DNA of 50,974 nt from Bilabrum cf. latius. Taxonomy: Eukaryota. The position numbers were made by a program, and so were the translations under genes. Where the stretch lies: assembly GCA_965178125.1 (NCBI GenBank), contig CBCXTV010000001.1, positions 310,001-360,974 of the forward strand, written 5' to 3'. Below the pieces are notes generated by a model. The model worked only from the letters and a program-made list of their open reading frames with translations. It was not told the origin of the DNA and made no database searches. This document shows positions 1 through 19,278 of this stretch, piece by piece (the stretch's first letter is position 1; each line of letters starts with the position of its first letter).

Positions 1-1606
1 CAGCGCCATAGGGCAGAGCGTGAAGTACCTGGCCGCTTGGCTTGGCCGGACCCCCGCCCGCCCTCCGCCGGCAGCTCCTCCCGTCCGTCCCTATGGAGGC
101 AGATCCGCGTACCCATGCTGCGGCGGGATCCTGACACAATCCGCTCCTCTTAGTGTGTGGCCGTGGGGCATGAGTGGAGCAGCATCGGGCCCTCACCAGC
201 CGTGGAACGGAAGCAGCTCTCCGTGCGGCAGCTGTGCGATGCACAGACCTCGTCCCAAAGATACGGATCCATTTTGCCGTCTTCCCGCGCATACTGCATC
301 GCTCTGCAAAACTGCATTGCGCAGTGGATCCCCGAGCGTCGACTGCCAATAGCAGGCGGCCTCGCAAGGCCTTCATGGACGCAGGATTTGGGCTTCTTCA
401 TCGTAAATTTGGGGTCTGCTCAGCGCGCGAAAATTCCAACGCTTCAAAATGATCCGGACGTCGCGAGAAGGGAACTCGTTGCTTGCTCACCTGTGCGGAG
501 GGGTTGGATGCCCGATGTGCTAAAGAGAGGATACTGTCCGTCGGCGTTCTCTCTTCACCTTGTGCGGAAGGGTTGGGTGCCTGATTTCAGACAGAGAAGG
601 TCTCGTCCGTTGGGAGCGCTTAGGAATACTTCCGGATGGGGCGTCCAGACGCGGTCCAGGACCTCCAGCTCGTCGGGGTCAATGTCGCCCGCGCCGTCCG
701 TGCCTTTGACGCCCTCTGGATCGATGATGCCCACGATCTTTGTCATCTCGGACGACACACGTCCCAGCTGCTCTTTGGTAGTGCATTACCTCATTGACCC
801 CGAAGCGTTGAATATTTAATGAAGACCCTTCGGAAGCTGACGAAGTTTGTCAGCTTGTCGGAGCGCAGCCTGGGTCCTTGTCAACAAACATGGAGGGTTT
901 CGGGGCGGATTTCCAGCGTTCCGCCTTGATATCGAGTGCACCTCGAGGTCGGGATCGAAGCGGGGCGGGCGGTTCGTCATCCTCTGTGATACGCTTAGGA
1001 GGCGCCGACTTGATGCCCACCTTGTCCCCCAATCACTCCAGACGTAACTGGGGAACTCTACCCGTCGTGGGCCGGGTACGCCTCCGAATCCCACGCGAGC
1101 CGTTCCCCACGGCGCACCGATAAGCGCCGCTGCAAGCGTACCAAGAGGGGCGTACCAAGAGGTGCTTCCTTCGCTCGGCAGTGTGGCACTTCAAGCAGTA
1201 GAATGTGCCACTCCCAGCACGTAGGTGGAGTTTGCGAGCTGCCGGCCGACATGCTCGTGTGGTGACCTCCGGCGCACCGATAAGTGCCGCTGCAAGCGCA
1301 CCAATACTACTTCGCTTGGGAGCGTGGCACTTTAAGCAATGCAGTGCGCCGGTTTTCGTGCACGCCCAGTCGCGCGGACGCCGCAGGTGGCTTGGCGGTA
1401 GGATAGAATTAGTGGCGGGTCGGTTTTGCATGTCTTCCCTCTCCTCTTGATATGGTACACAAAGGCAAGAGCCTGACGATGCAGACGGAACTCCTGGATT
1501 TCACCGCCACATTCCTAGTCAAGACAGCCCTCGACTAAACAGACGCCGAGTTATCTTGAGCAGCATCCCACGACGCAGTGATGTGGACGGCAAGGGTGAT
1601 GCCATG

Positions 1607-4420
1607 CTTTCCGGGCCTCCCATGTGACCGCTTTTTGCGTACCGAAACACTTTCCGAGGTCGACGCCCCGGCGGAGCACGCCGGCGCGGCGGCAAGCGTC
1701 GATGTTGCGGGCGGCCCAGCCATGAGGTACATGATCAAGTACGCGGAAAGCACGCAGAGCGTCGTCAATCCGTTCGTGAGCCGCGAGTTCCAAAAGGTCT
1801 TCGAGCACATCCGCCCGGAAAGCACGCAGAGCATCGTCAATCCGTTCGTGAGCCGCGAGTTCCAGAAGGTCTTCGAGCACATCCCCCCGGAAAGCACGCA
1901 GAGCATCGTCAATCCGTTCGTGAGCCGCGAATTCCAAAAGGTCTTCGAGCACATCCCCCGGATGATGTCGAGCATGCGGACGCCCTGCTCCGGATGATGT
2001 CGGCCATGCGGACGCTCTTCCCAGACCTTGCGCGGCAGCGGGACGAAAATGGAGCTCTCCCTGCACCGCAAGCACGCCGGAAACCTGGTGCACTTCCACG
2101 TATGCATGACGGACTCCGAGAGGTCGCATCGTTGTCGCGTGGCGGAGGATTTCATTTGGGCCGGCAGCAGGCCGAATGTCGTGTACGGCTTTTAGGTACC
2201 GAACCCGAGCTCCCGGCAGCAGCGCAGGCGGCATGCTTGGGGCGGCACGTGGATCTTCGACGACGCCATTACGCTAAGCGATTGCGGGTCGAGGGTGCAG
2301 ATCGGCGCGCCGCAGTCGAAGCTCTTGGCGATGGTCGTGCCCCGGAAGTCGGGCCAGGGCATTCTCCGAGTCTCTTTGCCGATGATGTCTGAGGAGAAAC
2401 CGTCCGAGAGCATTGCTGTTTCCTTGGGAGACGGCCGCAATCTTCGTGGGCGTCAAGGCGCCGGTAATATGGGAAACGAGGGCGGCATGTTGGCGCGCGA
2501 GGTCGACGCCCCGGCGGAGCACGCCGGCGCGGCGGCAAGCGTCGATGTTGCGGGCGGCCCAGCCATGAGGCACATGATCAAGTACGCGGAAAGCACGCAG
2601 AGCGTTGTCAATCCGTTCGTGAGCCGCGAGTTCCAAAAGGTCTTCGAGCACATCCCCCCGGAAAGCACGCAGAGCGTCGTCAATCCGTTCGTGAGCCGCG
2701 AGTTCCAGAAGGTCTTCGAGCACATCCCCCCGGAAAGCACGCAGAGCATCGTCAATCCGTTCGTGAGCCGCGAGTTCCAAAAGGTCTTCGAGCACATCCC
2801 CCGGATGATGTCGAGCATGCGGACGCCCTGCTCCGGATGATGTCGGCCATGCGGACGCTCTTCCCAGACCTTGCGCGGCAGCGGGACGAAAATGGAGCTC
2901 TCCCTGCACCGCAAGCACGCCGGAAACCTGGTGCACTTCCACGTATGCATGACGGACTCCGAGAGGTCGCATCGTTGTCGCGTGGCGGAGGATTTCATTT
3001 GGGCCGGCAGCAGGCCGAATGTCGTGTACGACGTATGGTCAGACGCAGCCGCTTGGAAGGCGGGTGGCGGCGTGGCAGACGGGAAGGATGTCGGAACCTG
3101 GGGTTCATGGAAGACGCCTGCGAAGTCGTCATGGGGGGAGCCGTACGTGCCGTGGCAGGTCGCGCCGGAGCCGGCGGAGGAGGCGACATGGACTTGCAAC
3201 GCGTGCCAGGGCCTAAGCCCCGGTCAGAGTACTTCAAGAAGTGGAAGGACTGGATCCAACCAGTTTGCCGGGTGTGTTGCGACAAGTTCGACAACGCGAC
3301 GCCGTGGTGGGTGAGGTGCAAGAACTGCAAAAACGAGTATCCGGCGTACCGATTTCCCCAGAACCGCCGGAAGAAGGAGAACCTGCGCTATTTCTTCCCT
3401 GAGGACTGGTGCGCGAAGTGCCTGGTTGCGCGTGGCTGGAGTCTCCATGATGTCCGTTCCTCTGCGGGTGAAGCGAAGCGTTGGGTGCCAAAAGCTGGCG
3501 CGAATACCGGTGACGGCGACAACGACGCTCGTGCTCCCGCACGCGACGAGCCTCCTGCAGGAGGCGCCGCCTCCTGCAGCAACGCCGTGCGTCAGAGTCC
3601 TTCGCGTGACGAGGCCTTGGATGACATCAACCGGGCCATGGAGCTTCTCCGGAATGCGGAGAAATTCATCTCCGCGATGCCATCGTGCATGCAGTGTGCG
3701 GTGCAGGACCAGTTGATGCAGGGCATCGTCAAAGACCAGGCCCTCTTGGATATCTTCTCCGGCAAGATAACGGACTGGATCAAATACCATCCGGCCACTC
3801 TTGGGGCGATCCAATCCCATCGAAACGCATGGCTGTGGGCTGAGAACCACACGCCGACGGAATGGCTCATGGTTGTCGAGGATGATATCGAACCTCGCGA
3901 AGCATGCGTGGATCGGCTACTCGTAGTTCTTCACGCCATCGCGAAAACCCCAAGGTGACGCAGATGGCCATGTTAGCGGGGTCAGAAGCACCGAGAATGG
4001 TCAGCCTCCAGCGCGGAAACTCCACCTCCATCCACAACTGCGAGCGCCTCTTGGACGTGCGGACCTATCCGGCGCACTGGGTAGACAACACATTTGTGGT
4101 CCCCTACCACGTCGGCATGGGCCTAAAGTGGTATCTCATCAGCCCGGAGGGGAGGAAGGCGCTCCTGAAGATGCGGATCCCGAACCGAAGCTTCGAACGC
4201 TGCGTCTGGCGCCGCCTCTTCGACACGTTCCACGCCGGCGAAACCTCGAGTTTTGGCATCAAGATCGTGTCGCGGCCAGGCTGTACGACGGCGGCAAGAA
4301 GACGGAGAAGGAGGATGCTCACGGTATCGCCCTGATCATCTGCACGACTTCGTGGGGCTCCATGACGTAACGGCGAGCGAGAACATTGACTGGTGGCGTG
4401 GCTGGAGGATCTCGGGAACA
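1607..4420 (+). pseudogene. Mosaic of fragments of the element's own genes
   Basis: Consecutive pieces match rep, the GT25 gene, ORF18271 and ORF23036, with scattered substitutions, frameshifts and stops. Confidence 0.85.
1744..1960 (+). repeat. 3 x 72-bp tandem repeat derived from the GT gene (~10725-10797); the triplet recurs at ~2587-2803
   Basis: cggaaagcacgcag starts at 1744, 1816 and 1888; encodes ESTQSxVNPFVSREFQKVFEHIxP. Confidence 0.9.
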
Positions 4421-4725
4421 CACGGCGGGCGAGCCGTTTTTCAAAAGGAGCACGGGTCCTTCGGGACGCCATTTCACTTACGGCGGGCGAGCCGTTTTCC
4501 GAATGGTGCGGGGGTCCTACTGATGCACACGGCGATCGCTGGTTCACTCACGGCGGACACACGGCGGGCGAGCCGTTTTTCAAAAGGAGCACGGGTCCTT
4601 CGGGACGCCATTTCACTTACGGCGGGCGAGCCGTTTTCCGAATGGTGCGGGGGTCCTACTGATGCACACGGCGATCGCTGGTTCACTCACGGCGGGCGAG
4701 CCGTTTTCCGAATGGTGCGGAGTCC
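4421..4725. repeat. Array of five ACGGC-gggcga-GCCGT-tttt hairpin repeats
   Basis: Copies at 4422, 4480, 4561, 4619 and 4689 with spacers in A-B-A-B order. Confidence 0.85.
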
Positions 4726-5040
4726 TCCAGATGACCACGGTGATGGGTGGCAGCATGTCATAGGCGCGCCGTCGGAAGCTTCCCCTTCGAGTGCTGCCTA
4801 AAACTGAGAAACCTGGAGATCCTAGCATCGTATGGAGGCAAGAGGTAACACCTTGGGGTCCGTTCTCCGCTTCAATTCCTGTCCCAAATCCGATTCCCAT
4901 TTCGAGACCGAAAAAGGTGACCCGGAAAACGACGGTACTTATTTCTGAACCGTTTTCCGGACGCTTTCCGGGCCTCCCATGTGACCGCTTTTTGCGTACC
5001 GAAACACGTTCCGCGCGTGAGGAGCAGATGCGGGGATTTC

Positions 5041-5700
5041 GCCAAAAATGGCCGATCCGCACAAGGAATTTAAGTTGCGGCGACACAGCTCGGACCCCGG
5101 CTTTTTTTTGGCTGTTTCGGGGCCCCAAGAGGGCTCCCGGCCCCAAAAAGAGCGTTTTCGGGGGGCTCGGAAGGGGACCCCCCAGGATTTGGCCAAAAAT
5201 GGCCGATCCACACAAGGACTTTAAGTTGCGGCGACACAGTTCGGGCCCCGGTTTGTTTTTGCGGTTTGGGGGCCCCGAGAGGGCTCCCGGCCCCAAAAAG
5301 GGCAAAACGCGAGGTTGTGGTGGAAAAAATGGGCCCCAGGCAGCCCCCAAACGACGCAAAACGCCACGTTGTGGTGGATTTTAGAGCCCCTAAATCGCCC
5401 AAAAAAGACGCAAAACGCCACGTTGTGGTGGATTTTAGAGCCCCTAAATCGCCCCAAAGAGACGCAAAACGCCACGTTGTAGTGGATTTTAGAGCCCCTA
5501 AACCGCCCTAAAAAGACGCAAAACGCCACGTTGTGGTGTTTTTTTTTTTGAGCGTTTTGGGGGGGCCCGGAAGGGGACCCCCCCAGATTTGGCCCAAAAT
5601 GGCCGATCCACACAAGGAATTTAAGTTGCGGCGACACAGTTCGGGCCCCGGGGTTTGTTTTGCTGTTTGGGGGCCCCAAGAGGGCTCCCGGGAGGCCCTA
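5041..5700. repeat. Complex minisatellite: 54-bp units nested in a larger repeat
   Basis: gacgcaaaacgccacgttgt at 5353, 5407, 5461 and 5515; the aaaatggccgatcc...taagttgcggcgacacag block occurs three times. Confidence 0.9.
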
Positions 5701-8686
5701 GAGTGGCCCTTCTCCGCTTCAATTCCTGTCCCAAATCCGATTCCCATTTCGAGACCGAAAAAGGTGACCCGGAAAACGACGGTACTCTCCGTCACTCCAT
5801 CTGGCGGCGAAAATTGCCTCAGTTTCCGGTCCCCGATTCCGGGCCCAAGGACCCCCGAAATTCCCGATTCCGCGCAGTGCCGAAAGCTCGACATAAACCA
5901 CAAACACGACACACAACACAACACGATAGCGCCTCCCCACGCGCGGGATTGGGTCCTTCCGCTCGCTGCATGTGAGCTGCAGTGTGTTCTTGCCGGGAAT
6001 GTCACTGGAAGTCGCGCTGCAGTCTGCTCAGGGCGCCTTATGACCATGAAGGCGTCTCAGCACCCGCGACGGCAAGAGGGGGCACGCACGACGTTGCGAA
6101 GCACCCGCCCTGGGTGAAGAAACTGCGTATCCACAGGAGTCACGTTCAGTTGCGCGAGAATTGGAAAGGCGGGGTAACTGGTGCAGAGGAGCTTGTTCGC
6201 AGCGCGGCTTCCACCAGCGCCGCTGACGATAAGATGCATCGGTCTCGGTACATGAGTCGGCACGGTGTTGCGTGATTGACTTCACGATGCGGGAGTGTGC
6301 AGCCTTCCGCAGCGGGAGAATTGTATCTCCCCACGACCGCCGAAAAAAAAAAAAAAAAAGGCTATGCTGGACTCGTTCCAGGGAAGGCTATGCGATGAGT
6401 ATCTCTAGGCGCTTTCCGGAAGACCCACCCACTACACGCTGGTCAGCCCTCCCAAGCGGGAGTGAACCGCGGAGCCGCGGGCCCGTGAGCGCTGCTGCTA
6501 CGATCATTTCTGCCCGTTTGACTCTCGCCCACTCTTGCCGTGACCAAAGACGCGCAGATCCTTATGACGCATGACACCTCGTCGAGGTGTCGAGACTGCC
6601 TCACATTCCCGTTACGGAGACCCACAGCACTGCGACAACGAAATCGGTCACGAAGAGAGCAAGAGGCCGCGCACCTGAGCATCACAAAAACCCCGAGAGA
6701 CATAAACAACACCGTACCGTGAAGTCCCTGCGACGAGGGGATGCTAAGCGGCTCCCACGGCGGCTCCTCTGCGGGAGAAGCTGCCGCAGACCTCGAGATG
6801 GGATGCACATGATTGCGAAGATTGCGGAACTCGTCCGAAGCCGGTCGCACGAGGGTCACAGCGAATGGAGGCATATCTTTGAAATAGAGTCTGCGTGCAA
6901 AGCAGCATTCCAAACGATCGTCCGCATTCTTCCGAGCAAATCCTTGGGAGCACACATCCTGCGGACGACATCTCTTTTCTATCCACCCCAGCGTACTCCC
7001 CGCGCACACTTCTCGCGAATGATTGAGAATTCTGTGCGGCACATGTAATATCAGGCTACCATGATACGCGGAATGGCGTGCTATTGCTCGCACGTTCGTG
7101 CGCCCCCTTCCGAATGCGCTTACCACATCACTATGTTCGTCGGCAACCGTATACACCGTAGGGGTCTTCCCTCCGACACCAAGCGTACACGACTGGCCGT
7201 AATAGCGCAGCGTAGATGTTTCGGACGTCGCCCAGGACAAGTGTCGACGCCCGGTTCGTCACGATCACTACGTGTGCACTTCACTCACCGCCCTCCAGCC
7301 GCTAGACTTCTTTTGGAACGCGACATCCTACGACGCGCTATGACACGTAGCCGTAAACCGCAGACGGCCTCGCGTTCACTGCTTGCAGCGCAAGTGCGTG
7401 AACAAGAACCGCCCGCGTGGCACACCTTCGCAGGCGCGGAAGACAAAAAGTTCCTTCTAAGCTTGTATTCGGGTCCGAAAGCCAAATTCCACTTCGGGGT
7501 CGAGAAGGGCGACCCGGGAAATCACCGTACGCTCTGTGAATCCATTTCCCGGGGAAAGTCCCCGAGTTCCCGCTACCCGGTCCCAGGCCCAGCGACCCAG
7601 GAAAGTTCCCGTCCCCCCGCATGCGGAAACCTCCCACGAAGCACGCCCACCTCACGCTTCACACGCAAAAGTCCAGGAGTCAAATCCATTCCGGACCCAG
7701 CAGTTCACCCCCCGTGACGATTGGGAAAGGCTCTTGCACACACCTTCTCGTCCGAGCAGTCTATGGAGCACACGCCTGTCTTCGTTGCCTTTTCCGGCCA
7801 AAAATGCAGGGAGTTCGAAGGGGAAGTAGCAAACGCGGAAGACCGCTTTCGAAACGCAGGTGCTCAGGGAAAAACAACCAGAGCGTCCCTGATCCTCGGC
7901 AGAGCCGTCCAGGAGGGACGGGCACGGACGGGCATCGCAGATCTTGCAGCGCCACCATTCGCCGGGATGGGCGACCGGACGAGGGCGACCACAAGTACGT
8001 AGCGTGCGACGTCCGTCAGTCGCCATGTTGCGCTCATTCGCTTTCGCGGCACGACTTCCAGGGCCGGCCTTACTCACTCCTCGGAGTCCGCGTGTGGATT
8101 CTCCCCTGCGCACGATCTGCCGCTCTAGATGCTACACAAAGATCCCGCTCGGATGACCCCCTCTGTGCATTCTGCAAGATTTTACGCGCCTCCATTCAAT
8201 GCGCGAAGCATGCACCGCAGCAGTCTGAGTCCGGTGACCACCTTCAATAGCGTGGGACAAATTCCGTCCGCGATGTGCATTCGGGCATGCTCCCCTTTCC
8301 GAGTCTCTGTGACCCGTAGTGCGTCCGCGGCCAACGACTCAGGACTCCACGATGGTACGCACGAGTTGCATTCCTTGCACGAAGCGTGCGGAGAGAAAGC
8401 GATGCTCAGACATCGAGGCGCTTGGAGGGTCTGCACACGACATGCTTCGAGAGGCCATGCAAACATGCGAAACCAGAACTGAGGTTCCTCATCGTTCCTG
8501 CTGTCGAGCGCTCAATTGGGGCATCGGATCAGGACGAAGCTCGCGAAGAGAGGGCGCGGGTGTCCCCATCCAAAAATCCGCCGCCTTCAAGGCTCATGTT
8601 CCCGGATCCTGCATTCGCGAGTTTCGGGAGCAGAAGTGCAAGATCGCCGCTGGACACACAGCGCATGCCATTTCCCGTCTCTGGAG

Positions 8687-11248
8687 ATGTCGGGCTTCCA
8701 GGCGCAATTCGGACACCATCGCCAGGACCTCGGGAAGATGACATGTCTGCTGATCTGCAGGGAAGAGTCCCGCTTCGAGGAGTGGCGACAAAAAAAAGGG
8801 GCGCGAGAACTCCACGAGCACATGGGAGCGGTCCTTCGGCTCCCCAATCCAGTGTTTCCGCAGACCGACAGGGACCCAGATGGACGCGACATCGTCAAAG
8901 ACCAGGCCCTCTTGGATATCTTCTCCGGCAAGATAACGGACTGGAGCAAATACAATCCGGCCACTGTTGGGGCGATCCAATCCCATCGAAACGCATGGCT
9001 GTGGGCTGAGAACCACACGCCGACGGAATGGCTCATGGTTGTCGAAGATGATATCGAACCTCGCGAAGCATGCGTGGATCGGCTACTCGTAGTTCTTCAC
9101 GCCATCGCGAAAAACCCCAAGGTGACGCAGATGGCCATGTTAGCGGGGTCAGAAGCACCGAGAATGGTCACCCTCCAGCGCGAAAACTCCACCTCCATCC
9201 ACAATTGCGAGCGCCTCTTGGACGTGCGGACCTATCCGGCGCACTGGGTAGACAACACATTTGTGGTCCCCTACCACGTCGGCATGGGCCTAAAGTGGTA
9301 TCTCATCAGCCCGGAGGGGAGGAAGGCGCTCCTGAAGATGCGGATCCCGAACCGAAGCTTCGAACGCTGCGTCTGGCGCCGCCTCTTCGACACGTTCCAA
9401 GGGCCGGTATGGAAGTGGGGAGATTGCCTCCGCATGACATCTGTGCTGGCAGCCAGCCCGGTCCTCGCATCGACTCCCGAGAGCATGGACACGGAGTGGG
9501 GGGGCTCGGGACGACGAAGTGCGGATGCAGGGCACAGTATGAAACCGTACATAATGATCGACCCGAGTGACGACTGGACTCTTGGCGAGCGATTAAACAC
9601 ATTGTCCGTCGTGATGTCCGTGTGCGCGGCCCTGAGTTGGGGGGTTGTCCTCGTCTGGGAAAAAACAGAGCGCGTGCCCATCTCCTACGAAGACTTGTGC
9701 GGTGTTCACGAGCACGCCGGCGAAACCAACACGTTCGTCCACCTCCTCCAGGACAAACGCGGCGGGTCGTATTCGTACTTCCTGAGGTACGGAGACATCC
9801 GCATCCACGTGGTGCAGCCGATGATGTGCATCCCCACCCTCGACAGAATGCTCGACATGGTAGCCATGAAGAGGCCCAAGATGAACACCCTGCCTCCCTT
9901 GAAATGGCAGACCGCTCGATGGATCCAAGTCAAGCAGAAGTGGATCGATAAACTCCACACGGAGATGCCGGGGGCCGAGCTGCCCTCATGGCTGGAGTGG
10001 CCACCCTCAACCCACGCGCTTGTCCTCTGCGACGACAGGGACTTGGCGGCGCATTGCCTCGAGGGGAGATGCCAAGAGGAGCAGCAGGAGTGGATGAACG
10101 GCGGGAAGGACAACAGCATCCAGTACTACATCCTTGAGGCAAAGCAGGCGCTGCAGAACGAGTTGGAAGACATCCTAAAGGGGGACAGCAGCTCGCGCCT
10201 CGTCGTGATCCGCATGACAACCAAACCGCTGGGACAGGTCTGGGTGGACATGATGAAGCACCTCACGAAGCAGTTCAGGGAGCGCATCATAACGCCAACG
10301 TTCCTCCTCCCGAAAATGATCCCCAAAAGGAGGCACGACGAGAAGAACCCGAGTGATGATTGGATTACTTGGGGAGCATCCTTGGCGAAAACCGTGGGCC
10401 TCCTCACGCTCATACCTCCGATGCAAGTGCACTATCCCATCATGAGCTGGACCGTGGCCTGGAACCACTTCATGTTTAAGGGCAGGACTGCCACGGACAC
10501 CGTGATCCCAGACGTCATCCGAACTCTGTACGCTCCGCACAAGAGCAACAGGAAGCAGCTCCTCAAGAACGGCCCGCTGTGCCAGACGAGGCGCGCCGTG
10601 CTGGACTCGCCCGCACTGCGGGACATTGCGAACAACTACTCAAGGGCCAAGGACAAGACCTATAACCTCTTGAGTTATTCCAAATGGTTTGCCGAGGAAG
10701 CCATGTGGCACATGATCAAGTACGCGGAAAGCACGCAGTGCATCGTCGACCCGTTCGTGAGCCGCCAGTGCCAAAAGGTCTTCGAGCACATCCCCTCGGA
10801 CGACATCGGCCATGCGGACGCCCGGCTCCGGTACAACCTTCAGGATGCCGACGACCGAGGTTACCGCTTCAACGCGGGGCATCTCTACACCGCGGTGCAG
10901 GGCATCAAAACGGTGAACATCGCATACAACAAGTGGCTCACCGAGCAGGCACAGAGTCATTCCGAATGGAGCTGGGGCAAAACGTTCATCAAGCTTGTGA
11001 TCAACCAGTGGCGGCAGCAGCAGGGCAGTGAGCCGTATGACGTGGACGAGGAGGAGTACGTGAGCCTTCCGCGGACCTTCCACGGGAATTCGTTGAAGCT
11101 CGCGAGGAGCGTAAGCCACAAGGACACGAGATCCTGCTCCAGATCGTCCTCATCCTATTCCAGGTCGCCCTCCACCAACAGGACTGAGGCACAGCCTTCG
11201 AAGAGAGCGCGCCTGACCCCGGCACCCGGCGTAAAGCACGAGCCCTGA
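8687..11248 (+). CDS. Large protein with an N-terminal GT25-like glycosyltransferase domain
   Basis: GAIQSHRNAW...WLMVVEDDIE...WYLISPEGRKALL matches GT25 signatures (GCxxSHxxxW, hEDD, YhhSxxGAxxLL). ORF is open from 8516; first ATG is 8687. Confidence 0.7.
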   Translation: MSGFQAQFGHHRQDLGKMTCLLICREESRFEEWRQKKGARELHEHMGAVLRLPNPVFPQTDRDPDGRDIVKDQALLDIFSGKITDWSKYNPATVGAIQSHRNAWLWAENHTPTEWLMVVEDDIEPREACVDRLLVVLHAIAKNPKVTQMAMLAGSEAPRMVTLQRENSTSIHNCERLLDVRTYPAHWVDNTFVVPYHVGMGLKWYLISPEGRKALLKMRIPNRSFERCVWRRLFDTFQGPVWKWGDCLRMTSVLAASPVLASTPESMDTEWGGSGRRSADAGHSMKPYIMIDPSDDWTLGERLNTLSVVMSVCAALSWGVVLVWEKTERVPISYEDLCGVHEHAGETNTFVHLLQDKRGGSYSYFLRYGDIRIHVVQPMMCIPTLDRMLDMVAMKRPKMNTLPPLKWQTARWIQVKQKWIDKLHTEMPGAELPSWLEWPPSTHALVLCDDRDLAAHCLEGRCQEEQQEWMNGGKDNSIQYYILEAKQALQNELEDILKGDSSSRLVVIRMTTKPLGQVWVDMMKHLTKQFRERIITPTFLLPKMIPKRRHDEKNPSDDWITWGASLAKTVGLLTLIPPMQVHYPIMSWTVAWNHFMFKGRTATDTVIPDVIRTLYAPHKSNRKQLLKNGPLCQTRRAVLDSPALRDIANNYSRAKDKTYNLLSYSKWFAEEAMWHMIKYAESTQCIVDPFVSRQCQKVFEHIPSDDIGHADARLRYNLQDADDRGYRFNAGHLYTAVQGIKTVNIAYNKWLTEQAQSHSEWSWGKTFIKLVINQWRQQQGSEPYDVDEEEYVSLPRTFHGNSLKLARSVSHKDTRSCSRSSSSYSRSPSTNRTEAQPSKRARLTPAPGVKHEP

Positions 11249-12122
11249 CGACGAAATGCCGCGGAACAGCGCGTTGCGAGGAGACAAAGCTCCGCAGGCA
11301 ACAGCAGAAGGCCGCCGAGCGCCGGAGTTGGAGGGTCACATAGTTCCATCGGTCCCATTCTCTCCGGAAGTCGCATAGCACGTGGAGATCCGCATGCTCT
11401 CGGTGCATGAACGCTGGCAGCACGCAGTGCCAAAGTCGCAAAGCGCTTCAGAGTCACAAGTCCAGAAGTTCTTCTGCCAATGTGTGTCCTCTTCCCGCTC
11501 ATGTGTGCATCCTCGGAGGAAGTCTGGAGATGACAGGACCCAGCACGCACCACATCAGAAGTCCTTTTTTAAAGCGGCATCGTCAGACAAAAATCTGGAA
11601 CGCCCTTCCGCAAAAAAGAGTGCTGCCCACAGAAAAAAGGGAAACACCTGAGGCCCCAGAAGCCAAAGGGAGGACCGCGAAGGACGCAGTTTCGAGGTCA
11701 CACTTTCCGGGACCAGTTTTGAGCCCAAAAAGGGGTACACAAGAGGAAAACACGATGCGGGAGGCTTGAAATTGTCACCGAAAACGGGCCCAAAATTGGG
11801 ACCCCTTTTTCGCAAATTTCGCAGCATCCAGACGACCCAGAAAGGCTTTCCCAGGCGCCGCCTCGAAGCTCACCTTCTCGCATGCAACCATGACGCAGCC
11901 CCACCTCCTCATGCAGACGCGTCTGAGAGACCCCGCAGTGGAACTTCTCCCATTCTGCGCAGGAAGCACTTCAGTCTACAAGGACCCGCGCACTTCTTAC
12001 CGCACCACCTCCATGTGAAAGCACTTCTCGCGGAGTTTTTTTCGGGCCCAGGAATACAGCAACTGCCAGAAGCTTCGCACAGAAAAGCAGCCCACTCAGG
12101 AAGCAAACTCACTGCACACCCC

Positions 12123-12593
12123 ATGGCGAGCGACGCAGAACCGGAGGACGCAATGCGGCTCGACTCCCCTAGAGATGCGGATGCAGCGGCGCCACCCGAA
12201 GCGACGGAGGCAGGATCACAGAAACCAGATCATGCGCAGCAGTTCTTCGAGGAGCCCTGCCCGAAAGACGGACACATGGAAGCGCTAGAGAAGACCGCCA
12301 AGACGGACGAACCTGGCGACACACCCTTGTTCGTCGACAAGTGGACGGCAGCGATCACACGCCTTACCGAGGAGCGCAAGGCTCTCAAGCTCGAGCAGCG
12401 GGCTAAAACGAAGGCCATCCGCAAAACCATCCGGCAGAAAAGGCGCACCATGAAGAACGCCAAAAAACTCACAGACGACGAGCTCGCCCAAATCGTGCTA
12501 GACAGGAAGATCTTGCAGTTGGTGCAAAAAGAAGAGATCGCAGCACGCAGCTCCGCCAACTCCTCAACGAGCCAGGCGAAGTCGACCTTGTGA
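12123..12593 (+). CDS. Small protein with an acidic N-terminus and a basic coiled-coil C-terminus
   Basis: MASDAEPED...LTEERKALKLEQRAKTKAIRKTIRQKRRTMKNAKKLTDDELAQIVL. Protein-like composition. Start placed at an internal ATG of ORF 11766-12593. Confidence 0.6.
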   Translation: MASDAEPEDAMRLDSPRDADAAAPPEATEAGSQKPDHAQQFFEEPCPKDGHMEALEKTAKTDEPGDTPLFVDKWTAAITRLTEERKALKLEQRAKTKAIRKTIRQKRRTMKNAKKLTDDELAQIVLDRKILQLVQKEEIAARSSANSSTSQAKSTL

Positions 12594-13015
12594 GAAGCGC
12601 TTCCCGTGTTCAGAGAACCGAGGATTACAGATAGACCCCGCGTCACAGAAGCCATCGCAAGAGGGCAGAGCGTCAAGTACAGCGCAGTCTTGACGGACAC
12701 AGATAGCCCGAGCAGCACAAAGCAGCGGATGCGGCTGCCCAGCGGAGTCGCGCACTCGGACAGCATACACGGGACGTGCTGGCAGAAATCACTCAGTCCG
12801 CGAGCACCGTCGTCAAGAGCACGGGAGGGGCAGACTCGACATGCACAACTTTGAAAAACGGGAGGGGCACGAAAGGAAGACAAATTTGGCATTAATCCTT
12901 GATTACCCCCGCCCCCCCGTAGAATCAGAGCGAGGAGATATGCTCGGAAGGTCCGGGGGGCAGTCGCAGAAAAGTGCACGCGAAAATAAGAGGAAAGGAG
13001 ACCCCCCAAACCCAC

Positions 13016-13166
13016 GTAGTGCGATCCTGGGTGGTACCCTCTAAGGTACTAAGAATCCTTCCCCCGAAAATCGCACTACATCGGTCCCTGGCGTCGGGGA
13101 AAGCGGAAAAAAGGGGAGCACTACCGTGAACAAATCCTGCATTTTACAGGAAAATCGGAGCACTAC
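13016..13166. promoter_or_regulatory. Candidate rolling-circle origin: stem-loop plus GCACTAC iterons
   Basis: GTAGTGCGAT (13016-13025) and ATCGCACTAC (13070-13079) form a perfect inverted repeat enclosing GTACC-ctctaa-GGTAC. GCACTAC recurs at 13118 and 13160. Lies upstream of rep. Confidence 0.45.
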
Positions 13167-13216
13167 GTGTCAAAAACTGGGGGTTTTTGAGGTTTTTTTC
13201 CAGAAAAACGGCATTT

Positions 13217-13425
13217 GGGGCCAACTGTCGGTTGTGGCCATACGCGTTGTGGCGTCGAGTCCGCGATCTCGTTGATTATGGCTTGAAAAACTATGACGGA
13301 AGCCACTGAGGGTGGTAAGTACTTCCAAAGGTGGAATCATGTGTACATTGCTTGCTCGATTTCAGCCACGTGCGCAAAAAACGGCCTCGATTTCGGTGCT
13401 GTTTTCGCCCCCGAAAAGCGAGCAC
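13217..13425 (+). ncRNA. Putative structured RNA cassette present only in copy 1
   Basis: Nested helices with multiple G-U pairs plus a 3' hairpin. Replaces an unrelated 209-bp segment found in copy 2 (39042-39250). Confidence 0.5.
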
Positions 13426-13768
13426 GATGCCCTCGAACGTCGTGTCTCATGTGGTATTCGCCGGTTTCTATGTTCGAGAAGGCGGTCGGTCGGTCATCCT
13501 CTCTGGCAGGCTCCGAAGTGCGTTTGTGATCGTGCTAATTGCAACGCCATGCTTTCCTTCGTTGGCTTCGAGAATCCTTCCCTCGGAAGCGGTACTACCT
13601 CGCCCAGGGCGGCACGAGCTGCAGACTCAGCTGCCTCGGTGCTCATGTGTGTCCCGTGTCAGCAGTTTCGGTGTTACGAACAGCAAGGATTCTGGGCATT
13701 GCGTGTCGGAGGCAAGTGTTCTATCTTGAGGCATTCCGCGATTCGTCGAAGGATTATTTGCGCAAATA

Positions 13769-16054
13769 ATGTCGGCTCCGTTCAAGGGCGAAACGATGAG
13801 TTTGTCTGTTGCCGAGTCGCTGAAGTCCCGAGTCGCATCCTGCTCCTGGGATCCCGCGTGGGTTTCCGCGAGCTGCGTGCCGTGCGATGGCCTCCCCACA
13901 AGCCAGGAGTCAGAAGCGTCCACGACGGCGACCTCTGCTTTGTTAGGGGTGTCCGAGGCGTCCCCAACGTGCTCGTGTGGCCTCGGTGTCTCCAATTCGG
14001 TGGCTGCAGCGCGCGCGGCCGCTGTCCCGAGTTTTGGCTTTGACGATGCGGAGAACGACTTCGACGCCAGTCTCGACATGATTGAGGCCTCATGCGAGGT
14101 CGCATGCGAGGCAGAATGCGAGGGCGATCCGGGAGCCTGCTTGTTGTCCCACGGCAAGTCGAGCGGTCAGTGGCAGATCGGCGTAGTGGGTGAACGAGTC
14201 CTTTATGAGGGCCTCAGCGTTGAGGGCGACATTCCTGGCCGCGTTGCTGCCTCCGAAGCGCTCGCCGCGGGTGTCATCAATTTGGAACCCCCGTCAGAGG
14301 AAGTACTTTTGCCGGTGCAGCTTCTGCGGAGTAGTCAAGGTTACCGTGGGGTTCTGCCCATCGAGGATTCTGCGCCCGATGCGAGGGGGCGACCGCAGAT
14401 GCTCATGCTTCCCGATTTCGTGCCCCCCGTGAAGAGGCGGCGTCTTCGGCAGAAGTGCGACCCTGCTGAGGGCGATGCAGCACCGAGTCTTGCGGCTCAT
14501 CTCGGACCTCCGCCCGCGGCTCGTGCCGCGGCCGGAGCGTCTGGGCCGCAGCGCTCGACTGGAAGGCCTTCGACTCGTCCTATTGATAGTGTCATCTATC
14601 GTCTCCTGCGGGTTTTCCCTGACGATTTCAAGTTGGCGTTTCCGGCGTCGGTGTCACACCAGCGGAAGCGGTGCCTCATCAGGGAGGCGCTTCGCAATGT
14701 ACCCGGTGACCGCATGTGCATCTTGAAAGACTGGGCTGCGGGGGCGGAGGACACTCCTTGCCAGCTTCGTTTCGAGGAGCTCTTCCCGGAGCTTGCGCGG
14801 CAGCGGGACGAAGTTGTGAGGAATCCGGGATCGCATTCAGTGCCCGTGGGCGAGATTGTGCCTGCGTCCGACAAGAACACGAGGCGGGGAAGGGCCGTGA
14901 TGCTTACCTTTCACGGTCGCTGGGGTGTCGAAAAGGAGCCTGTGCGCGACATCATGTCGGCATCCGTGGCAAGGGGCGTCCTGAGGCGATTGGTTCTCGC
15001 GTCTCCGTTCTATGTGGAGCTTTGGGCCACCTTCAAGGCATGGGCGCAGGACATCGCGCGGCGGATGATGTGGCCTCAGCTGTCCATGAAAATGGAGCTC
15101 TCCCTGCACCGCAAGCACGCCGCAAACTTGGTGCACTTCCACGTATGCATGACGGATTCCGAGAAGTCGCATCGTTGTCGCGTGGCGGAGGATTTCATGT
15201 GGGCCGGCAGCAGGCCGAATGTCGTCTACGGCTCCGGGCGGTCAGCGAAAGCGCAGGAACGTGGCGCGTCGGAGTTACACTATTATTGTCAAGCTCCCAA
15301 AGTCGGTGCGCTGCTTTGCGCCACGAACTACCGAGCCGGACGCGATTTCGTCGTCAATGGTAAGTTCGTGCACGCGTTGTTCGCACGCTTCAAAATGGAT
15401 CCGGACGTCGCGAGAAGGGAACTCGTGGCGTATCGGTGTCGGGACGCCGAGAACTTAGTGCGCGCCATCGACTTCCACATACAGAATGCCGCGGAGAGGA
15501 GAGAGGTGTGCGCGCAGGCCGCGGTGCACGTAGTGACGAAGCTCCGCCCCTTTAAGGTGGTGCCCGAAGTCGAGAAGTGGCGCGAGAGCTATCGTCAGGA
15601 GTGGTTCGCGCACATGCGCTTCAAGTTCCTTGTCTTGGTGGGGGACTCCCGGTTCGGGAAGACAGTGTACGCGCGGAATCTCTTCGGGAGCGAAAGGACT
15701 CTTGTTGTGAACTGTCAGGGCAGTGTGGAACCTCCGCTCCGTGGCTTCGATCGAAGTCGGCATGTGGCCATTGTGTTCGACGAGGCAAATGCCCTGTGGG
15801 TCGTCAACAACAAACAGGTCTTTCAGGCTGGCCTTGACCCCTCCCTGCTCGGCCAGAGCAAGACGAACAGCCTCGCATACTCTGTGTGGCTCCACGGTAT
15901 CGCCCTGATCATCTGCACGAATTCGTGGGGCTCTGACGTGACGGAGTCGGTGGACCGCGAGTGGCTTGACAACAACTGTACGAAAGTGGAGGTGAAAGAT
16001 CGGCTCTACTTCGACGAGGACTTGTTGTCTCTCACGGATGTGCAGAAGAGCTGA
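13769..16054 (+). CDS. rep: CRESS-type replication initiator: HUH endonuclease + SF3 helicase, with a long low-complexity N-terminal extension
   Basis: Motifs in canonical order: motif I VMLTF (~14897), motif II VHFHV (~15131), motif III HYYCQAPK (~15278), Walker A GDSRFGKT (~15641), Walker B IVFDE, motif C IICTN. Confidence 0.9.
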   Translation: MSAPFKGETMSLSVAESLKSRVASCSWDPAWVSASCVPCDGLPTSQESEASTTATSALLGVSEASPTCSCGLGVSNSVAAARAAAVPSFGFDDAENDFDASLDMIEASCEVACEAECEGDPGACLLSHGKSSGQWQIGVVGERVLYEGLSVEGDIPGRVAASEALAAGVINLEPPSEEVLLPVQLLRSSQGYRGVLPIEDSAPDARGRPQMLMLPDFVPPVKRRRLRQKCDPAEGDAAPSLAAHLGPPPAARAAAGASGPQRSTGRPSTRPIDSVIYRLLRVFPDDFKLAFPASVSHQRKRCLIREALRNVPGDRMCILKDWAAGAEDTPCQLRFEELFPELARQRDEVVRNPGSHSVPVGEIVPASDKNTRRGRAVMLTFHGRWGVEKEPVRDIMSASVARGVLRRLVLASPFYVELWATFKAWAQDIARRMMWPQLSMKMELSLHRKHAANLVHFHVCMTDSEKSHRCRVAEDFMWAGSRPNVVYGSGRSAKAQERGASELHYYCQAPKVGALLCATNYRAGRDFVVNGKFVHALFARFKMDPDVARRELVAYRCRDAENLVRAIDFHIQNAAERREVCAQAAVHVVTKLRPFKVVPEVEKWRESYRQEWFAHMRFKFLVLVGDSRFGKTVYARNLFGSERTLVVNCQGSVEPPLRGFDRSRHVAIVFDEANALWVVNNKQVFQAGLDPSLLGQSKTNSLAYSVWLHGIALIICTNSWGSDVTESVDREWLDNNCTKVEVKDRLYFDEDLLSLTDVQKS

Positions 16055-16458
16055 CGCCGGCCGCTGAGGTTTTCAGTCCGGTTCACACGAGCGCCGGAGC
16101 CGCAGCGGCAGCCGCTTCGGTGCTCCTGAAGGTCTAATGTCCTCAATGCGTTTCGTGTGCAAAAAGGATGTGATTTCTACATGGGGGCATTCCGCAAGTT
16201 TCATGTGGTCCGTCGCGTTCGTCCGGGGGAGTGCTTGCCTAGTATTGGGAGCTTGCCTGACACACACACACGTGGCACCCAGCCTGATGGGTTGCAAGTG
16301 TGTGTGTGTCTCCGCAGTGCCGCGGTTGGGACCCGGCGGGTCGTTTGCTTTTACGTCGCCGCGTCGCGCGCCGACGAGACATTTCTTGGTCTCAGAAGCC
16401 TCTGCTTCCGGTAGGCGCGCCGTGTACGCTCGCGGGCCGAAGGTGGGTGCGTTGCTTG

Positions 16459-17151
16459 ATGGCCTACGTCGGTATCGCCGATGCACCGTATGTGCCCGTG
16501 GTTGCCGCGTCGACCTCCGAGCACGCCCCGGAGGGCGAGGTGGAGATGATGCTTGCGCCTCTTGCCGGAGATGTCGGTTTCAAGCGGCCTCGCGTGTTTC
16601 CTCCCGGTTCGCGACTTCTTCCTAAGTCGCCGGCCCATCCGGCGGTGCTCATAACAGCGCTCGGCAGTGAGGCACCCCAGGACACACAGTGCGTCGTTTG
16701 GTCGGACTCTAAGGCTTTCGACCTCGCGGAGTTTGTATGCTCTTCCTGCGGCTGCAATCGTGTCATGGCGGACCTGAATCATCGTATGCGTGATCGTCTC
16801 GTACGTCGCGTGCAGCGCACGCTTTATGCCGATGATTCTCCGTGCGGCAGGGGTGCGATTTCGTGTCGTGCTTGTCGCGAGAAGGCGCGCGACGCGGCGC
16901 CGAAGACGTCGATTATGAACGCGGCGAACAAGAAGAAGATCTCGGGAACTCTTCGCATGCAGTTGGATCTCATTGTAGAGACCGGGGAGCGGAAGGGTCA
17001 GCGTTGTACTGCGGAGAAAATTCTGACATTGGGAACGATGAAGCAGCACAGGGTTTTCGAGAGGGACCTTTACGATGAGGCATGGCGCGGGCTTGTTCGT
17101 CTGTCTGGACGCGAGGCTTGGAGCGATGACGACTCGTGGTCTCCGCGTTGA
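16459..17151 (+). CDS. Hypothetical CxxC...CxxC zinc-ribbon protein
   Basis: MAYVGIAD...CSSCGCNRVMADLN...ISCRAC; directly downstream of rep on the same strand. Confidence 0.55.
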   Translation: MAYVGIADAPYVPVVAASTSEHAPEGEVEMMLAPLAGDVGFKRPRVFPPGSRLLPKSPAHPAVLITALGSEAPQDTQCVVWSDSKAFDLAEFVCSSCGCNRVMADLNHRMRDRLVRRVQRTLYADDSPCGRGAISCRACREKARDAAPKTSIMNAANKKKISGTLRMQLDLIVETGERKGQRCTAEKILTLGTMKQHRVFERDLYDEAWRGLVRLSGREAWSDDDSWSPR

Positions 17152-17358
17152 GCTTGCGTGACGGTTTTCCCTCTTAACCTGGCCTCTTGCGTGGCGCTGC
17201 TTCCGCGTGTGGCCTGAGCGTGCGACCTGAGCGTTCGGCCTGCTGTCGCGTGTGACCTGAGCGAACGGGCGCTCGACAGTATCCCGCGTTTGTTGCTTCT
17301 GGGGTTCAAGAAACTTGTACTTTTTGGGCTGTACGGTGGTCAGTGGTGCACGGTTCGT

Positions 17359-17500
17359 TCGCAGCCTCCGCGTTGTTGGAAAGCTATGGTGGAGCATGGT
17401 TCTTTTCGCAGCCTCCGCGTTGTGATCAAGCTACGGTGGAGCATGGTTCGTGAGCATGGTTCTTTTCGCAGCCTCCGCGTTGTTGACACGTGAAAGCTAC
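17359..17500. repeat. Short tandem repeat (3 x tcgcagcctccgcgttgt with gagcatggttc linkers); also at ~43184-43325
   Basis: Copies at 17359, 17406 and 17466. Confidence 0.8.
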
Positions 17501-18270
17501 GCGAACGTGACCACACAATAGGCCATACCCCAGGTGAAATCCGGACTCGGACATCCAGACGAAACGGCATCATGCACACTGTTGAACACACAAATGACAC
17601 TGAGCTCCACCGTAACGTAACTTTCCATCACCACCTGGTTTATTTTCTCCGCGATGGCAGCTTGGCGGTGACGCTGTGTCTTCGGGCATGAAGGGGCAAA
17701 TCTTTGGTTTTTTGGGCCCTGTTTCGGTCACCGAAAAGTCGTGTGATTTCTGGCGCGCAGGAGGAGTGACGCAAGGTATTTCTGAACCGTTTTCCGGACG
17801 CTTTCCGGGCCTCCCATGTGACCGCTTTTTGCGTACCGAAACACGTTCCGCGCGTGAGGAGCAGATGCGGATCTCCGCGGGGTCCTAGTTGTGTCCTTTT
17901 TCGGGGGACGAAATCGGGCGCACTTGTCGTGCCGATTCGTGGTCGTCTCTGAGACCGGCTGCGAGTCGGGAAAGGTGCCCGGGAGATGCTCGTGTCCTTG
18001 GCTTCGTATTTCTCCGCGTATTCTTCAAACGCGGGCGCACGTCTCCTACCGATTCGTGGTCGGTTTCCGAGGCCGATCGCGAGTCGGGAAATGCGCCCGC
18101 GATGCGCTCTCGATCTCGGAAAGGGCGGGAGTCCGTTCTTGCATTCGGAATGGGCGGGGAGTTGCTTTTCCTGGGAGCATGTGCGAGATTCCTTCTCCGC
18201 GGGTCCTCTTTCGGCTTCGGCAGTCAGCAGCGCACTCTGCGGGAACGGCATTCTCCGAGTCTCTTTGCCG

Positions 18271-19278
18271 ATGATGTCTGAGGAGAAACCGTCCGAGAGC
18301 ATTGCTGTTTCCTTGGGAGACGGCCGCAATCTTCGTGGGCGTCGAGGCGCCGGTGATATGGGAAACGAGGGCGGCATGTTGGCGCGCGAGGTCGACGCCC
18401 CGGCGGAGCACGCCGGCGCGGCGGCAAGCGTCGATGATTCGGGCGGCCCCCACATCGAGAGCGGCGGCGCGGAGGCGGCGTCCACGGGGATGCTCGGAGA
18501 GGAGAGCGGCAAGGCAGCGCCGAAGGAGGACGCCGAAGACGACGGCGGCAAGAAGACGGAGGAGGAGGATGCTCGCGGCGGTGGACGTGCTGTGGTGCCC
18601 GGAGGTAATGACGACGTATGGACCGACGCAGCAGCTTGGAAGGCGGGTGGCGGCGTGGCAGCCGGGGCGGTCTCTGGCGCTGATAGCTGGGTTCTATGGG
18701 GGACCCCTGCGAAGTCGTCATGGGGGGAGACGTACGTGCCGCGGCAGGTCGCGCCGGAGCCGGCGGAGGAGGCGACATGGACTTGCAACGCGTGCCAGTG
18801 CTGCAAGCCCCGGTCGGCGTACTTCAAGAAGTGGAAGGACTGGATCCAACCAGTTTGCCGGGTGTGTTGCGACAAGTTCGACAACGCGACGCCGTGGTGG
18901 GTGTGGTGCAAGAACTGCAAAAACGAGTATCCGGCGTACCGATTTCCCCAGATCCGCCGGAAGAAGGAGAACCTGCGCTATTTCTTCCCTGAGGACTGGT
19001 GCGCGAAGTGCCTGGTTGCGCGTGGCTGGAGTCTCCATGATGTCCGTTCCTCTGCGGGTGAAGCGAAGCGTTGGGTGCCAAAAGCTGGCGCGAATACCGG
19101 TGACGGCGACAACGACGCTCGTGCTCCCGCACGCGACGAGCTTCCTGCAGGAGGCGCCGCCTCCTGCAGCAACGCCGTGCGTCAGAGTTCTTCGCGTGAC
19201 GAGGCCTTGGATGACATCAAGCGGGCCATGGAGCTTCTCCAGAATGCGGAAAGGTTCCTCCTCACGATGCCAGCGTGA
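18271..19278 (+). CDS. Hypothetical protein with an acidic disordered N-terminus and two zinc-ribbon units
   Basis: CNAC...CRVC and CKNC...CAKC pairs. Start placed at MMSEEKP inside ORF 17986-19278. Confidence 0.65.
   Translation: MMSEEKPSESIAVSLGDGRNLRGRRGAGDMGNEGGMLAREVDAPAEHAGAAASVDDSGGPHIESGGAEAASTGMLGEESGKAAPKEDAEDDGGKKTEEEDARGGGRAVVPGGNDDVWTDAAAWKAGGGVAAGAVSGADSWVLWGTPAKSSWGETYVPRQVAPEPAEEATWTCNACQCCKPRSAYFKKWKDWIQPVCRVCCDKFDNATPWWVWCKNCKNEYPAYRFPQIRRKKENLRYFFPEDWCAKCLVARGWSLHDVRSSAGEAKRWVPKAGANTGDGDNDARAPARDELPAGGAASCSNAVRQSSSRDEALDDIKRAMELLQNAERFLLTMPA

Follow-up and report, generated by a model that had tools for sequence, protein, structure and literature searches.

A mosaic of self-derived gene fragments in a tandemly repeated, Rep- and transposase-carrying element of Bilabrum cf. 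latius

Patchworks produced by template switching have been described in plant mitochondria, in defective viral DNAs and in transposons that take up host genes. Here we examine 50,974 bp of DNA from Bilabrum cf. latius (GenBank assembly GCA_965178125.1, contig CBCXTV010000001.1, positions 310,001 to 360,974 of the forward strand), referred to below as the window, which has a GC content of 60% and consists of about two head-to-tail copies of one unit of 25.6-25.8 kb. The unit bears a Rep gene, a DDE_1 transposase gene, a gene for a weakly supported glycosyltransferase (GT) and two further open reading frames (ORFs), ORF5 and ORF6. About 2.8 kb of it (1606-4373) form a mosaic of fragments of the unit's own genes. 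We consider it reasonably probable that this mosaic is an inherited, near-neutral and essentially non-coding patchwork that arose by serial microhomology-mediated template switching and was then duplicated and remodelled.

Pack-MULE and other Pack-TIR transposons, as well as Helitrons, resemble this locus, for they too are mobile elements in which gene fragments have been pieced together at short microhomologies, an outcome explained by template switching in the course of gap filling or replication. For Pack-TIRs, one published survey gives microhomologies of 1-36 bp, with a median of 2 bp, at one or more breakpoints in 67.6% of its cases (PMC8277862), and the median overlap in our mosaic is likewise 2 nt. 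The donors of Pack-type and Helitron captures are, however, host genes located elsewhere, whereas those of the mosaic all lie in the same 25.8-kb unit; unlike Pack-type captures, moreover, the mosaic sits inside an apparently autonomous element. We rejected a Helitron or Pack-type capture, since there are no host donors and no RepHel, and no terminal inverted repeats were found around the transposase (Helitron termini were not searched for).

The chimeric insertions and ORFs of plant mitochondria are also mosaics of the replicon's own sequences, and such ORFs often begin with the 5' region of a resident gene. The mosaic is laid out in the same manner, with a leader piece (1606-1656) ahead of the ORF5, GT, Rep and ORF6 pieces. 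Unlike a plant mitochondrial genome, the unit combines 60% GC with a Rep, transposase and GT-like gene set and has no tRNA or rRNA genes in 1-26500, where ARAGORN found no tRNA gene and no Rfam family reached its gathering threshold. Furthermore, sense-only and coding-only biases are not known to be general in plant mitochondrial chimeras. Defective DNAs of rolling-circle replicons are rearranged, deleted and made of parental sequence only, and the mosaic resembles them in lying beside possibly cis-acting repeats and in being bounded by direct copies of one sequence. Those DNAs are separate molecules, whereas the mosaic is embedded in each full-length unit, is inherited and has diverged from its donors by up to 12%. 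A functional analogy can be made with piRNA-cluster-type loci, where one locus gathers many mobile-element gene fragments; such loci lie in the host genome, whereas the mosaic lies in the element itself, with fragments in sense to its genes. In the literature searched we found no account of such a self-derived mosaic, which is weak evidence that none is in print.

The first-pass annotation of this DNA had described a patchwork of self-derived fragments at 1607-4420. When 1501-4600 was compared with the whole window by BLASTN, every piece and donor listed there was recovered on the plus strand within 1606-4373 (Table 1), and the pieces proved to be, as claimed, all in sense and slightly diverged (87.5-98.4% identity). 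Since the E-values reach down to 0, chance matches are excluded. The donors are four ORFs (GT, Rep, ORF5 and ORF6) and one upstream sequence that we call the leader. Two details of the annotation had to be amended. The mosaic ends at 4373, as no donor was found for 4374-4417 and the sequence from 4418 to 4695 is a separate tandem repeat; and the stretch 1718-2013, taken to be one GT piece with a 72-bp triplication, does contain the triplication but closes with a back-jump within GT. The annotation had also seen no transposase fragment, and BLASTN found none in the mosaic, the transposase being the sole one of the five supported ORFs that gave it no piece. There are no inverted copies in the mosaic, the only inverted match being a palindrome of 25-28 nt inherited from ORF5. 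Self-derived pieces were absent from the five other non-coding stretches of the unit and are confined to 272-4373, the lower limit being set by an older, decayed Rep-derived stretch in which only 439-482 (= 15385-15429) is still 95.6% identical in DNA. The two copies of the unit differ across 1-5150 by a single mismatch, at 4906.

An assembly chimera was ruled out as the source of the mosaic, given that the pieces are 1.4-12.5% diverged from their donors and that the same joins occur in proteins from other sequences. We also discarded a decayed colinear second gene set, because the order of the pieces would need at least six wraps of the unit and is no better than random.

For the statistics, 15 independent pieces and 15 unique joins were scored. 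The overlaps at the joins are, in nt, 2, 0, 4, 3, 2, 3, a TTT filler, 0, 3, 3, 2, 2, about 1, 0 and 1 (median 2); the 3-nt filler, which is untemplated, lies between Rep piece b and ORF6 piece a, and this join makes a TAG stop at 2191-2193. Short microhomologies, which had been noticed at several joins in the first pass, reach 2 nt or more at 9 of the 15, as compared with an expected 15.6% (P = 1e-4). All 15 pieces have the same orientation (0.5^15 = 3e-5), which plain debris would not predict. Five of the 15 jumps span at most 600 nt (P = 1e-3 when compared with the whole unit), and one path, from ORF6 at 23822 through two GT pieces and back to ORF6 at 23861, leaves a template and re-enters it. 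The 72-nt unit is flanked by CGGA on both sides in the donor, and we therefore attribute its triplication to slippage. Mismatches are also denser within 40-60 nt of the joins (6.0%) than beyond (2.7-3.3%; Fisher P 1e-4 to 2e-3), an excess that persists when the C-terminal GT72 pieces are left out (4.8% vs 2.9%, P = 0.04). The joins share no sequence motif, and joining specific to Rep or the transposase was discarded on that ground; the leader/ORF5 join was likewise rejected as a splice site, since its boundaries are not GT..AG.

Taken together, the microhomology, the single strand, the short jumps, the return to a template, the CGGA-bounded slippage and, less clearly, the mismatches near joins bear out the template-switching origin proposed in the first pass. 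Such marks are described, in one account, for gap-filling and fork-stalling models of transposon gene capture (PMC8277862) and, in another, for plant mitochondrial chimeras (PMC3698917). From the pieces, their joins and divergence, and from the chimeras found elsewhere, we infer a polymerase mechanism, a layering in time and a link to an origin-like region. A polymerase would copy one strand of the element and switch templates repeatedly by microhomology (copy choice), in the setting of fork stalling, break-induced replication or slippage on a rolling-circle concatemer. The nascent strand would leave one gene and re-prime on 0-4 nt of homology in another gene on the same strand, sometimes only a few hundred bases away and once back on the template just left. 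Later layers would comprise the 72-nt slippage triplication between CGGA repeats and the 843-bp segmental duplication, along with nested insertions, one of which placed a young GT piece inside an older ORF6 piece. The repeat-rich flank would act as a fragile cis-acting region where forks stall, and the product would be inherited with the element, drift almost neutrally and be rearranged further in different lineages.

The divergence of the pieces from their donors is compatible with such layers. It amounts to 1.4% in the GT N-terminal piece, apparently the youngest, 2.0% in ORF5 piece a, 3.7% in ORF6 piece a, 4.1% in Rep piece b, 5.0% in ORF5 piece b, 8.8-10.5% in GT72 and 12.5% in ORF6 piece c. 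Among the seven pieces of at least 100 nt (1.4-10.4% diverged), two of which repeat one piece, the heterogeneity is significant (chi-square 30.3, df 6, P = 3e-5). The 843-bp duplication, with its two arms 99.06% identical, would have come late. The 88 unique substitutions comprise 59 non-synonymous and 29 synonymous changes and fall on the three codon positions in the ratio 30:26:32. The comparison of dN/dS suggested in the first pass gave an omega of 0.6-0.76, a near-neutral value that covers donor and mosaic lineages together. When the GT N-terminal piece was polarised by a close variant, the mosaic lineage was found to have taken four non-synonymous changes and a frameshift.

To follow the mosaic in other sequences, the chimeric frame 2196-2837 was compared exhaustively by HMMER with 1.84 billion representative proteins, which yielded 13 matches at E <= 0.001. 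Eleven of them were mapped back onto the unit, namely the eight best (P0026-P0033) and three weaker ones (P0034, P0036 and P0037). Of the best eight, all are chimeric ORFs except P0032, a true homologue of ORF6 (65% identity). The other five matches are weak, and the three that were mapped are unrelated tandem-repeat proteins matching the GT72 repeat. P0029, P0027 and P0028 are near-identical versions of block 1 and block 2; the first two share the joins of these blocks but are each frameshifted in their own way. The Rep/TTT/ORF6 join recurs in P0030, where K stands for the TAG and two sites have donor-like residues. P0026, P0031 and P0033 contain pieces of the mosaic in longer form or in another arrangement, together with its specific substitutions. 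In P0026 this holds for ORF5 piece a, which extends further at both ends, begins within the 58-nt repeat and has tiny GT and ORF5 pieces after it. P0033 combines a single GT72 unit with an N-terminal piece of ORF6 and the Rep motif C piece of the mosaic. In P0031, a longer ORF6 a piece is joined to sequence resembling 21007-21418, where the window has no supported gene; this sequence runs directly into ORF6 from 23408 on, a layout that would be expected in the absence of the transposase. Since all these chimeric ORFs were produced by gene callers, they are not evidence of expression.

A close variant of the element is present on a 25,927-bp contig from another data set, with GT 99% and ORF5 96% identical, so that the size of the unit appears reproducible. 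At three amino-acid sites where the window's own donors differ, the mosaic sides with the donors of the close variant, and the consensus of the GT family backs S as the ancestral residue at the GT site. Because joins are shared in some relatives and rearranged in others, and because of these three sites, we conclude that the mosaic is inherited, is older than these lineages and is still being remodelled. The comparison across related elements proposed in the first pass thus returned, at the protein level, chimeric ORFs with the same joins together with others in different arrangements. In that annotation, a lack of transcription or small RNAs together with a lack of equivalents in relatives was to reduce the mosaic to one-off replication debris; equivalents do exist in other sequences, and the mosaic is inherited and still cut and re-pasted.

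Directly 3' of the mosaic lies a repeat-rich flank (4418-5033), which we propose to be cis-acting, as an origin or a promoter. The motif CCGTTTTCCG, with at most one mismatch, occurs 18 times in the window, as compared with 5.5 expected and with 18 reached in none of 100 shuffles. Six of the nine sites per unit are found in 4492-4959 (30074-30541 in the second copy), and the motif is also present in the leader; it could be an iteron or a transcription-factor site. The leader is 94 nt long, and its full copies (4940-5033 and 17777-17870) are 100% identical though 12.8 kb apart, the second being located 116 nt upstream of the ORF5 start codon. Direct leader copies at 1606-1656 and 4963-5013 bracket a 3,357-bp module, 1606-4962. 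The CRESS-type nonanucleotide NANTATTAC had 0 matches, and in the repeats and leader the predicted fold was no better than that of shuffles, with no nick-site motif or hairpin found. Of the leader segment that the mosaic contains, the first 10 nt (GCTTTCCGGG) match, as their reverse complement, the boundary of the 72-nt repeat of GT.

Several observations weigh against template switching followed by neutral drift. Fourteen of the 15 pieces lie wholly inside the four donor ORFs, which represent 33% of the remaining unit (P = 2e-6), the fifteenth being 51 nt of the 94-nt leader. The donor frame is kept at 10 of 14 scored joins, where a composition-corrected null gives 0.35-0.43 (mean 0.364; P = 0.008), and both the 72-nt and the 843-nt duplications are multiples of three. 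In the donor frame, no stop arises through any of the 88 substitutions (1.7-3.4 expected, P = 0.03-0.18), and P0030 has K where the mosaic has the TAG of the Rep/ORF6 join. Furthermore, the excess of short-range jumps is weak (P = 0.09) if landing is restricted to the four ORFs, the mismatch excess near joins could equally be explained by older short pieces, the order of events is drawn from a protein-level comparison of relatives, and an origin-like role for the flanking repeats is conjectural. Owing to the coding-only and in-frame biases, three other readings stay alive, in which the mosaic is a translated chimera, a copy of RNA templates or a source of regulatory RNA. In the first of these, in-frame GT, Rep, ORF5 and ORF6 pieces would now or recently be translated into one or more chimeric proteins, which could act, for example, as trans-dominant or regulatory polypeptides, and selection on frame would have shaped the surviving joins. 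The frame-keeping joins, the lack of stop-creating substitutions and the open P0030 speak for it, together with ORF5 piece b, fused exactly before the donor stop codon, a 214-codon stop-to-stop frame (2196-2837) that reads three donors in their native frames up to 2802, and the copied gene leader with which the mosaic opens, accompanied by an ATG at 1599. However, frame 0 has stops at 1995, 2191 and 2838, there are four net frame-breaking indels inside pieces, and the substitutions, which fall evenly on the three codon positions, have cost the pieces conserved Cys and Trp residues. P0027, P0029 and P0031 are frameshifted at different places, the fragments are shorter than whole domains (the Rep piece has HUH without motifs I and III), and no mosaic ORF has a Pfam domain at cut-off. 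The near-neutral substitutions and the differing frame breaks in relatives would thus argue against a conserved protein, and we regard translation as quite unlikely. As to RNA templates, a reverse transcriptase or an RNA-templated repair could have switched between the element's mRNAs, with insertion of the resulting mosaic cDNA. This would suit the sense-only pieces, their derivation from ORFs in all cases except one from a putative 5' leader at the 5' edge, and the location of all five ORFs on the plus strand. On the other hand, no reverse transcriptase was found in the unit (Pfam, 20 long ORFs, 8 mosaic ORFs and 96 further frames), a poly(A) tract was not found at the 3' edge, and both the tandem slippage and the segmental duplication take place on DNA. 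Pieces and donor ORFs are colinear, with no introns in the donors, and the ORF6 piece of P0031 is joined to sequence without a supported gene in the window. An RNA template is in our opinion very unlikely.

In a further reading, which is compatible with template switching, the 3,357-bp module would be a defective, satellite-like derivative recombined back into the full-length element, or would still be releasable through recombination or Rep action at the two leader copies. In rolling-circle replicons, defective DNAs retain the origin alongside rearranged parts of the genome, and the module, bracketed by leader copies, holds the CCGTTTTCCG cluster and tandem repeats; in P0026, moreover, the ORF5 piece adjoins the same 58-nt repeat. 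The captured defective derivative suggested in the first pass finds some support in this bracketing, but the left leader copy is truncated, its upstream half being gone; the failure to find a nick-site motif or hairpin and the position of the decayed Rep piece (272-483) outside the module also tell against it. We consider this reading unlikely. Finally, aberrant or antisense transcripts with matches of 40-660 nt to four of the five genes could feed RNA interference or serve as a sponge, thereby setting the copy number or expression of the element. The persistence and continuing change of the mosaic in several lineages, its coverage of four genes at 87-98% identity and its confinement to one locus would agree with such a role. 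Yet the mosaic has no inverted copies able to form hairpins, apart from the ORF5-derived palindrome, and persistence is equally expected of neutral DNA in a unit where the five ORFs cover only about one third; we therefore give a regulatory RNA little credence. The serial template-switching reading is the one we favour.

Table 1. Pieces of the mosaic with their donors, and other features of the unit (window coordinates).
Feature	Coordinates	Strand	Remarks
Leader piece	1606-1656 = 17800-17850	+	98% over 51 nt; 5' edge of mosaic
ORF5 piece, block 1	1655-1717 = 18387-18449	+	97%
GT C-terminal piece (GT72)	1718-1993 = 10699-10831	+	72-nt unit x3; 88-91%; TRF period 72, 3.1 copies
GT back-jump piece	1991-2015 = 10797-10821	+	Apparent filler, templated
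Rep piece a	2014-2047 = 14779-14812	+	94%
Rep piece b	2045-2190 = 15088-15233	+	96%; carries HUH motif
ORF6 piece a	2194-2364 = 23415-23585	+	95%; 2194-2357 = 23415-23578 up to ORF5 join
ORF5 piece a (block 2)	2358-2560 = 18247-18449	+	98%; longer than block 1 piece
Block 2 duplicate	2498-3030 repeats 1655-2187	+	99.06% over 533 nt; 843-bp offset
ORF5 piece b	3028-3687 = 18611-19277	+	93.6%; Cys-rich domain to last codon before donor stop; 5 indel events
ORF6 piece b	3685-3725 = 23782-23822	+	95%
GT N-terminal piece	3724-4232 = 8890-9399	+	98.4%; 1-nt deletion at 3944
GT mid piece	4231-4245 = 9713-9727	+	15/15 exact
ORF6 piece c	4245-4284 = 23861-23900	+	87.5%; 4245-4373 (ORF6 c, ORF5 c, Rep c) in one common frame
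ORF5 piece c	4285-4324 = 18539-18578 (or to 18574)	+	95%
Rep piece c	4320-4373 = 15893-15944	+	92.6%; helicase motif C; 3' edge of mosaic
Block 1	1655-2190	+	ORF5, GT72, GT back-jump, Rep a, Rep b; frame 0 = donors' native frames
Block 2	2358-3030	+	ORF5 piece a, then GT and Rep pieces as in block 1
Second mosaic copy, second tandem unit	27188-29955	+	100% over 1501-4600 = 27083-30182
Older decayed Rep-derived stretch	272-483	+	Outside mosaic; Rep residues 506-554
Repeat-rich flank	4418-5033	+	Directly 3' of mosaic; 139-bp x2 tandem, CCGTTTTCCG cluster, full leader copy
Tandem repeat	4418-4695	+	139 bp x2, with 58-nt sub-repeats
GT (donor gene)	8516-11248	+	910-codon ORF; 836 aa from M75 in close variant
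Rep (donor gene)	13769-16054	+	761 aa; HUH motif (HFH), conserved Tyr/Lys motif, Walker A/B
ORF5 (donor gene)	17986-19278	+	430 aa; C-terminal half Cys-rich
DDE_1 transposase ORF	21444-23081	+	PF03184, E = 2e-11
ORF6 (donor gene)	23036-24100	+	354 aa; 65%-identical homologue P0032

The two copies of the unit correspond over 1-5150 = 25583-30732 (99.98%, offset 25,582 bp), 5150-13216 = 30978-39041 (offset 25,828 bp) and 13426-25149 = 39251-50974 (offset 25,825 bp). This shift in offset points to a genuine dimer or array, or to a mixed population, rather than to a simple artefact of circular assembly. Between 5150-5540 and 30732-31520 the copies differ in length by 246 bp, in and beside a 54-nt tandem repeat (4.6 copies at 5290-5538). 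At 13217-13425 and 39042-39250, segments of equal length (209 bp) with identical flanks are unrelated in either orientation, their alignment score being no better than that of shuffles, a difference that looks like a cassette-like replacement. A direct repeat of about 400 bp (19542-19940 and 20042-20461, 87% identity, 25 gaps) is located between ORF5 and the transposase.

The gene density of the unit is low, with five ORFs backed by Pfam and a GC3 scan that all lie on the plus strand and occupy only about one third of it. This density, the pogo-type DDE_1 domain and the protein composition suggest a eukaryote-type element; a dinoflagellate spliced-leader motif had 0 matches at up to 2 mismatches. 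Of all Pfam families, DDE_1, in the transposase ORF, alone exceeded its curated cut-off in a scan of 20 long ORFs, 8 mosaic ORFs and 96 further stop-to-stop frames; matches to PUF, BNR_6 and DUF5060 in two mosaic ORFs all fell below theirs. The assignment of GT as a glycosyltransferase is weakly supported, by a GT25 match in two of eight homologues (best E = 0.005) and by phrog_854 glucosyltransferase (E = 0.0013), itself a weak match and the only one among five proteins compared with PHROGs. No convincing inverted repeats were found flanking the transposase. The transposase ORF has a GC3 of 0.66, as compared with 0.72-0.78 in the four donor genes, and overlaps the start of ORF6 by 46 nt. ORF5 and ORF6 were considered as paralogues and rejected, as there is no similarity between them. 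ORF5 has a hypervariable stretch (18650-18710), in which the close variant, P0025, shows an insertion of 12 aa between altered residues, and the mosaic has yet another version, with indels of +1/-6/-1 that compensate one another. A blastn search of 8516-16054 against plasmids returned nothing, and sequence and profile searches of the PDB with Rep and GT gave no match.

An alignment of Rep with 11 homologues shows H456, H458, H504, Y506, K511, G630-K631-T632, D671-E672 and N718 to be invariant in all 12 sequences. The motifs appear in the order HUH (HFH), H-x-Y-x-Q-x-x-K and Walker A/B with a TN motif (motif C), so that Rep, as judged from its motifs, fits the order of a CRESS-type Rep, with an HUH endonuclease and a superfamily 3 helicase. 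No Pfam Rep family was found in any of the 12 members scanned. Whereas Helitron RepHel has two catalytic Tyr residues and a Pif1-type helicase, Rep has a P-loop domain and, in the region of motif III, a single invariant Tyr (Y506), next to a Tyr that is not invariant. Replitrons are described, in the source at hand, as elements of 2-4 kb whose Rep has no helicase, is the sole recognised domain and usually shows HUQ and GYxxK motifs (PMC10288648). Membership of that group was ruled out by the size of the unit (25.6-25.8 kb) and by the HFH motif and P-loop domain of its Rep. Among 185,579 bacterial and archaeal species genomes, the sole Rep relative, at 27% identity, is on PIVT01000289.1, a 1,859-bp contig of a metagenome-assembled genome labelled Proteobacteria; the contig offers no gene context and probably represents contamination by a eukaryote or its element. 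A near-identical Rep for the 25,927-bp sister contig was not returned, the best match among the searched proteins of 418-1332 aa being 53%, and the Rep of this variant may be split, shortened or absent. The element, with both Rep and a DDE transposase, belongs to a family undescribed in the literature searched, and no profile library recognises it.

What is new here is a patchwork made solely from the genes of its own carrier, sense-only, almost coding-only and frame-biased, which is inherited and has been remodelled in relatives. We give a rather slim chance to the mosaic being a selected self-regulatory locus of a new eukaryote-type Rep and DDE element, one that lies beside the cis-acting repeats and continually samples the coding sequence of the element in sense and mostly in frame. 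If this were true, the locus would express aberrant RNAs or chimeric polypeptides that throttle the same genes or titrate host defences. Its signatures would be the tendency to keep frame, the restriction to coding sequence, the absence of substitutions that create stops, and the persistence in several lineages. More generally, mechanistic biases would tell us about the sites and the manner of template switching during replication of such elements, for instance at transcribed DNA, and selected ones would make the locus a regulator of the element's own making.

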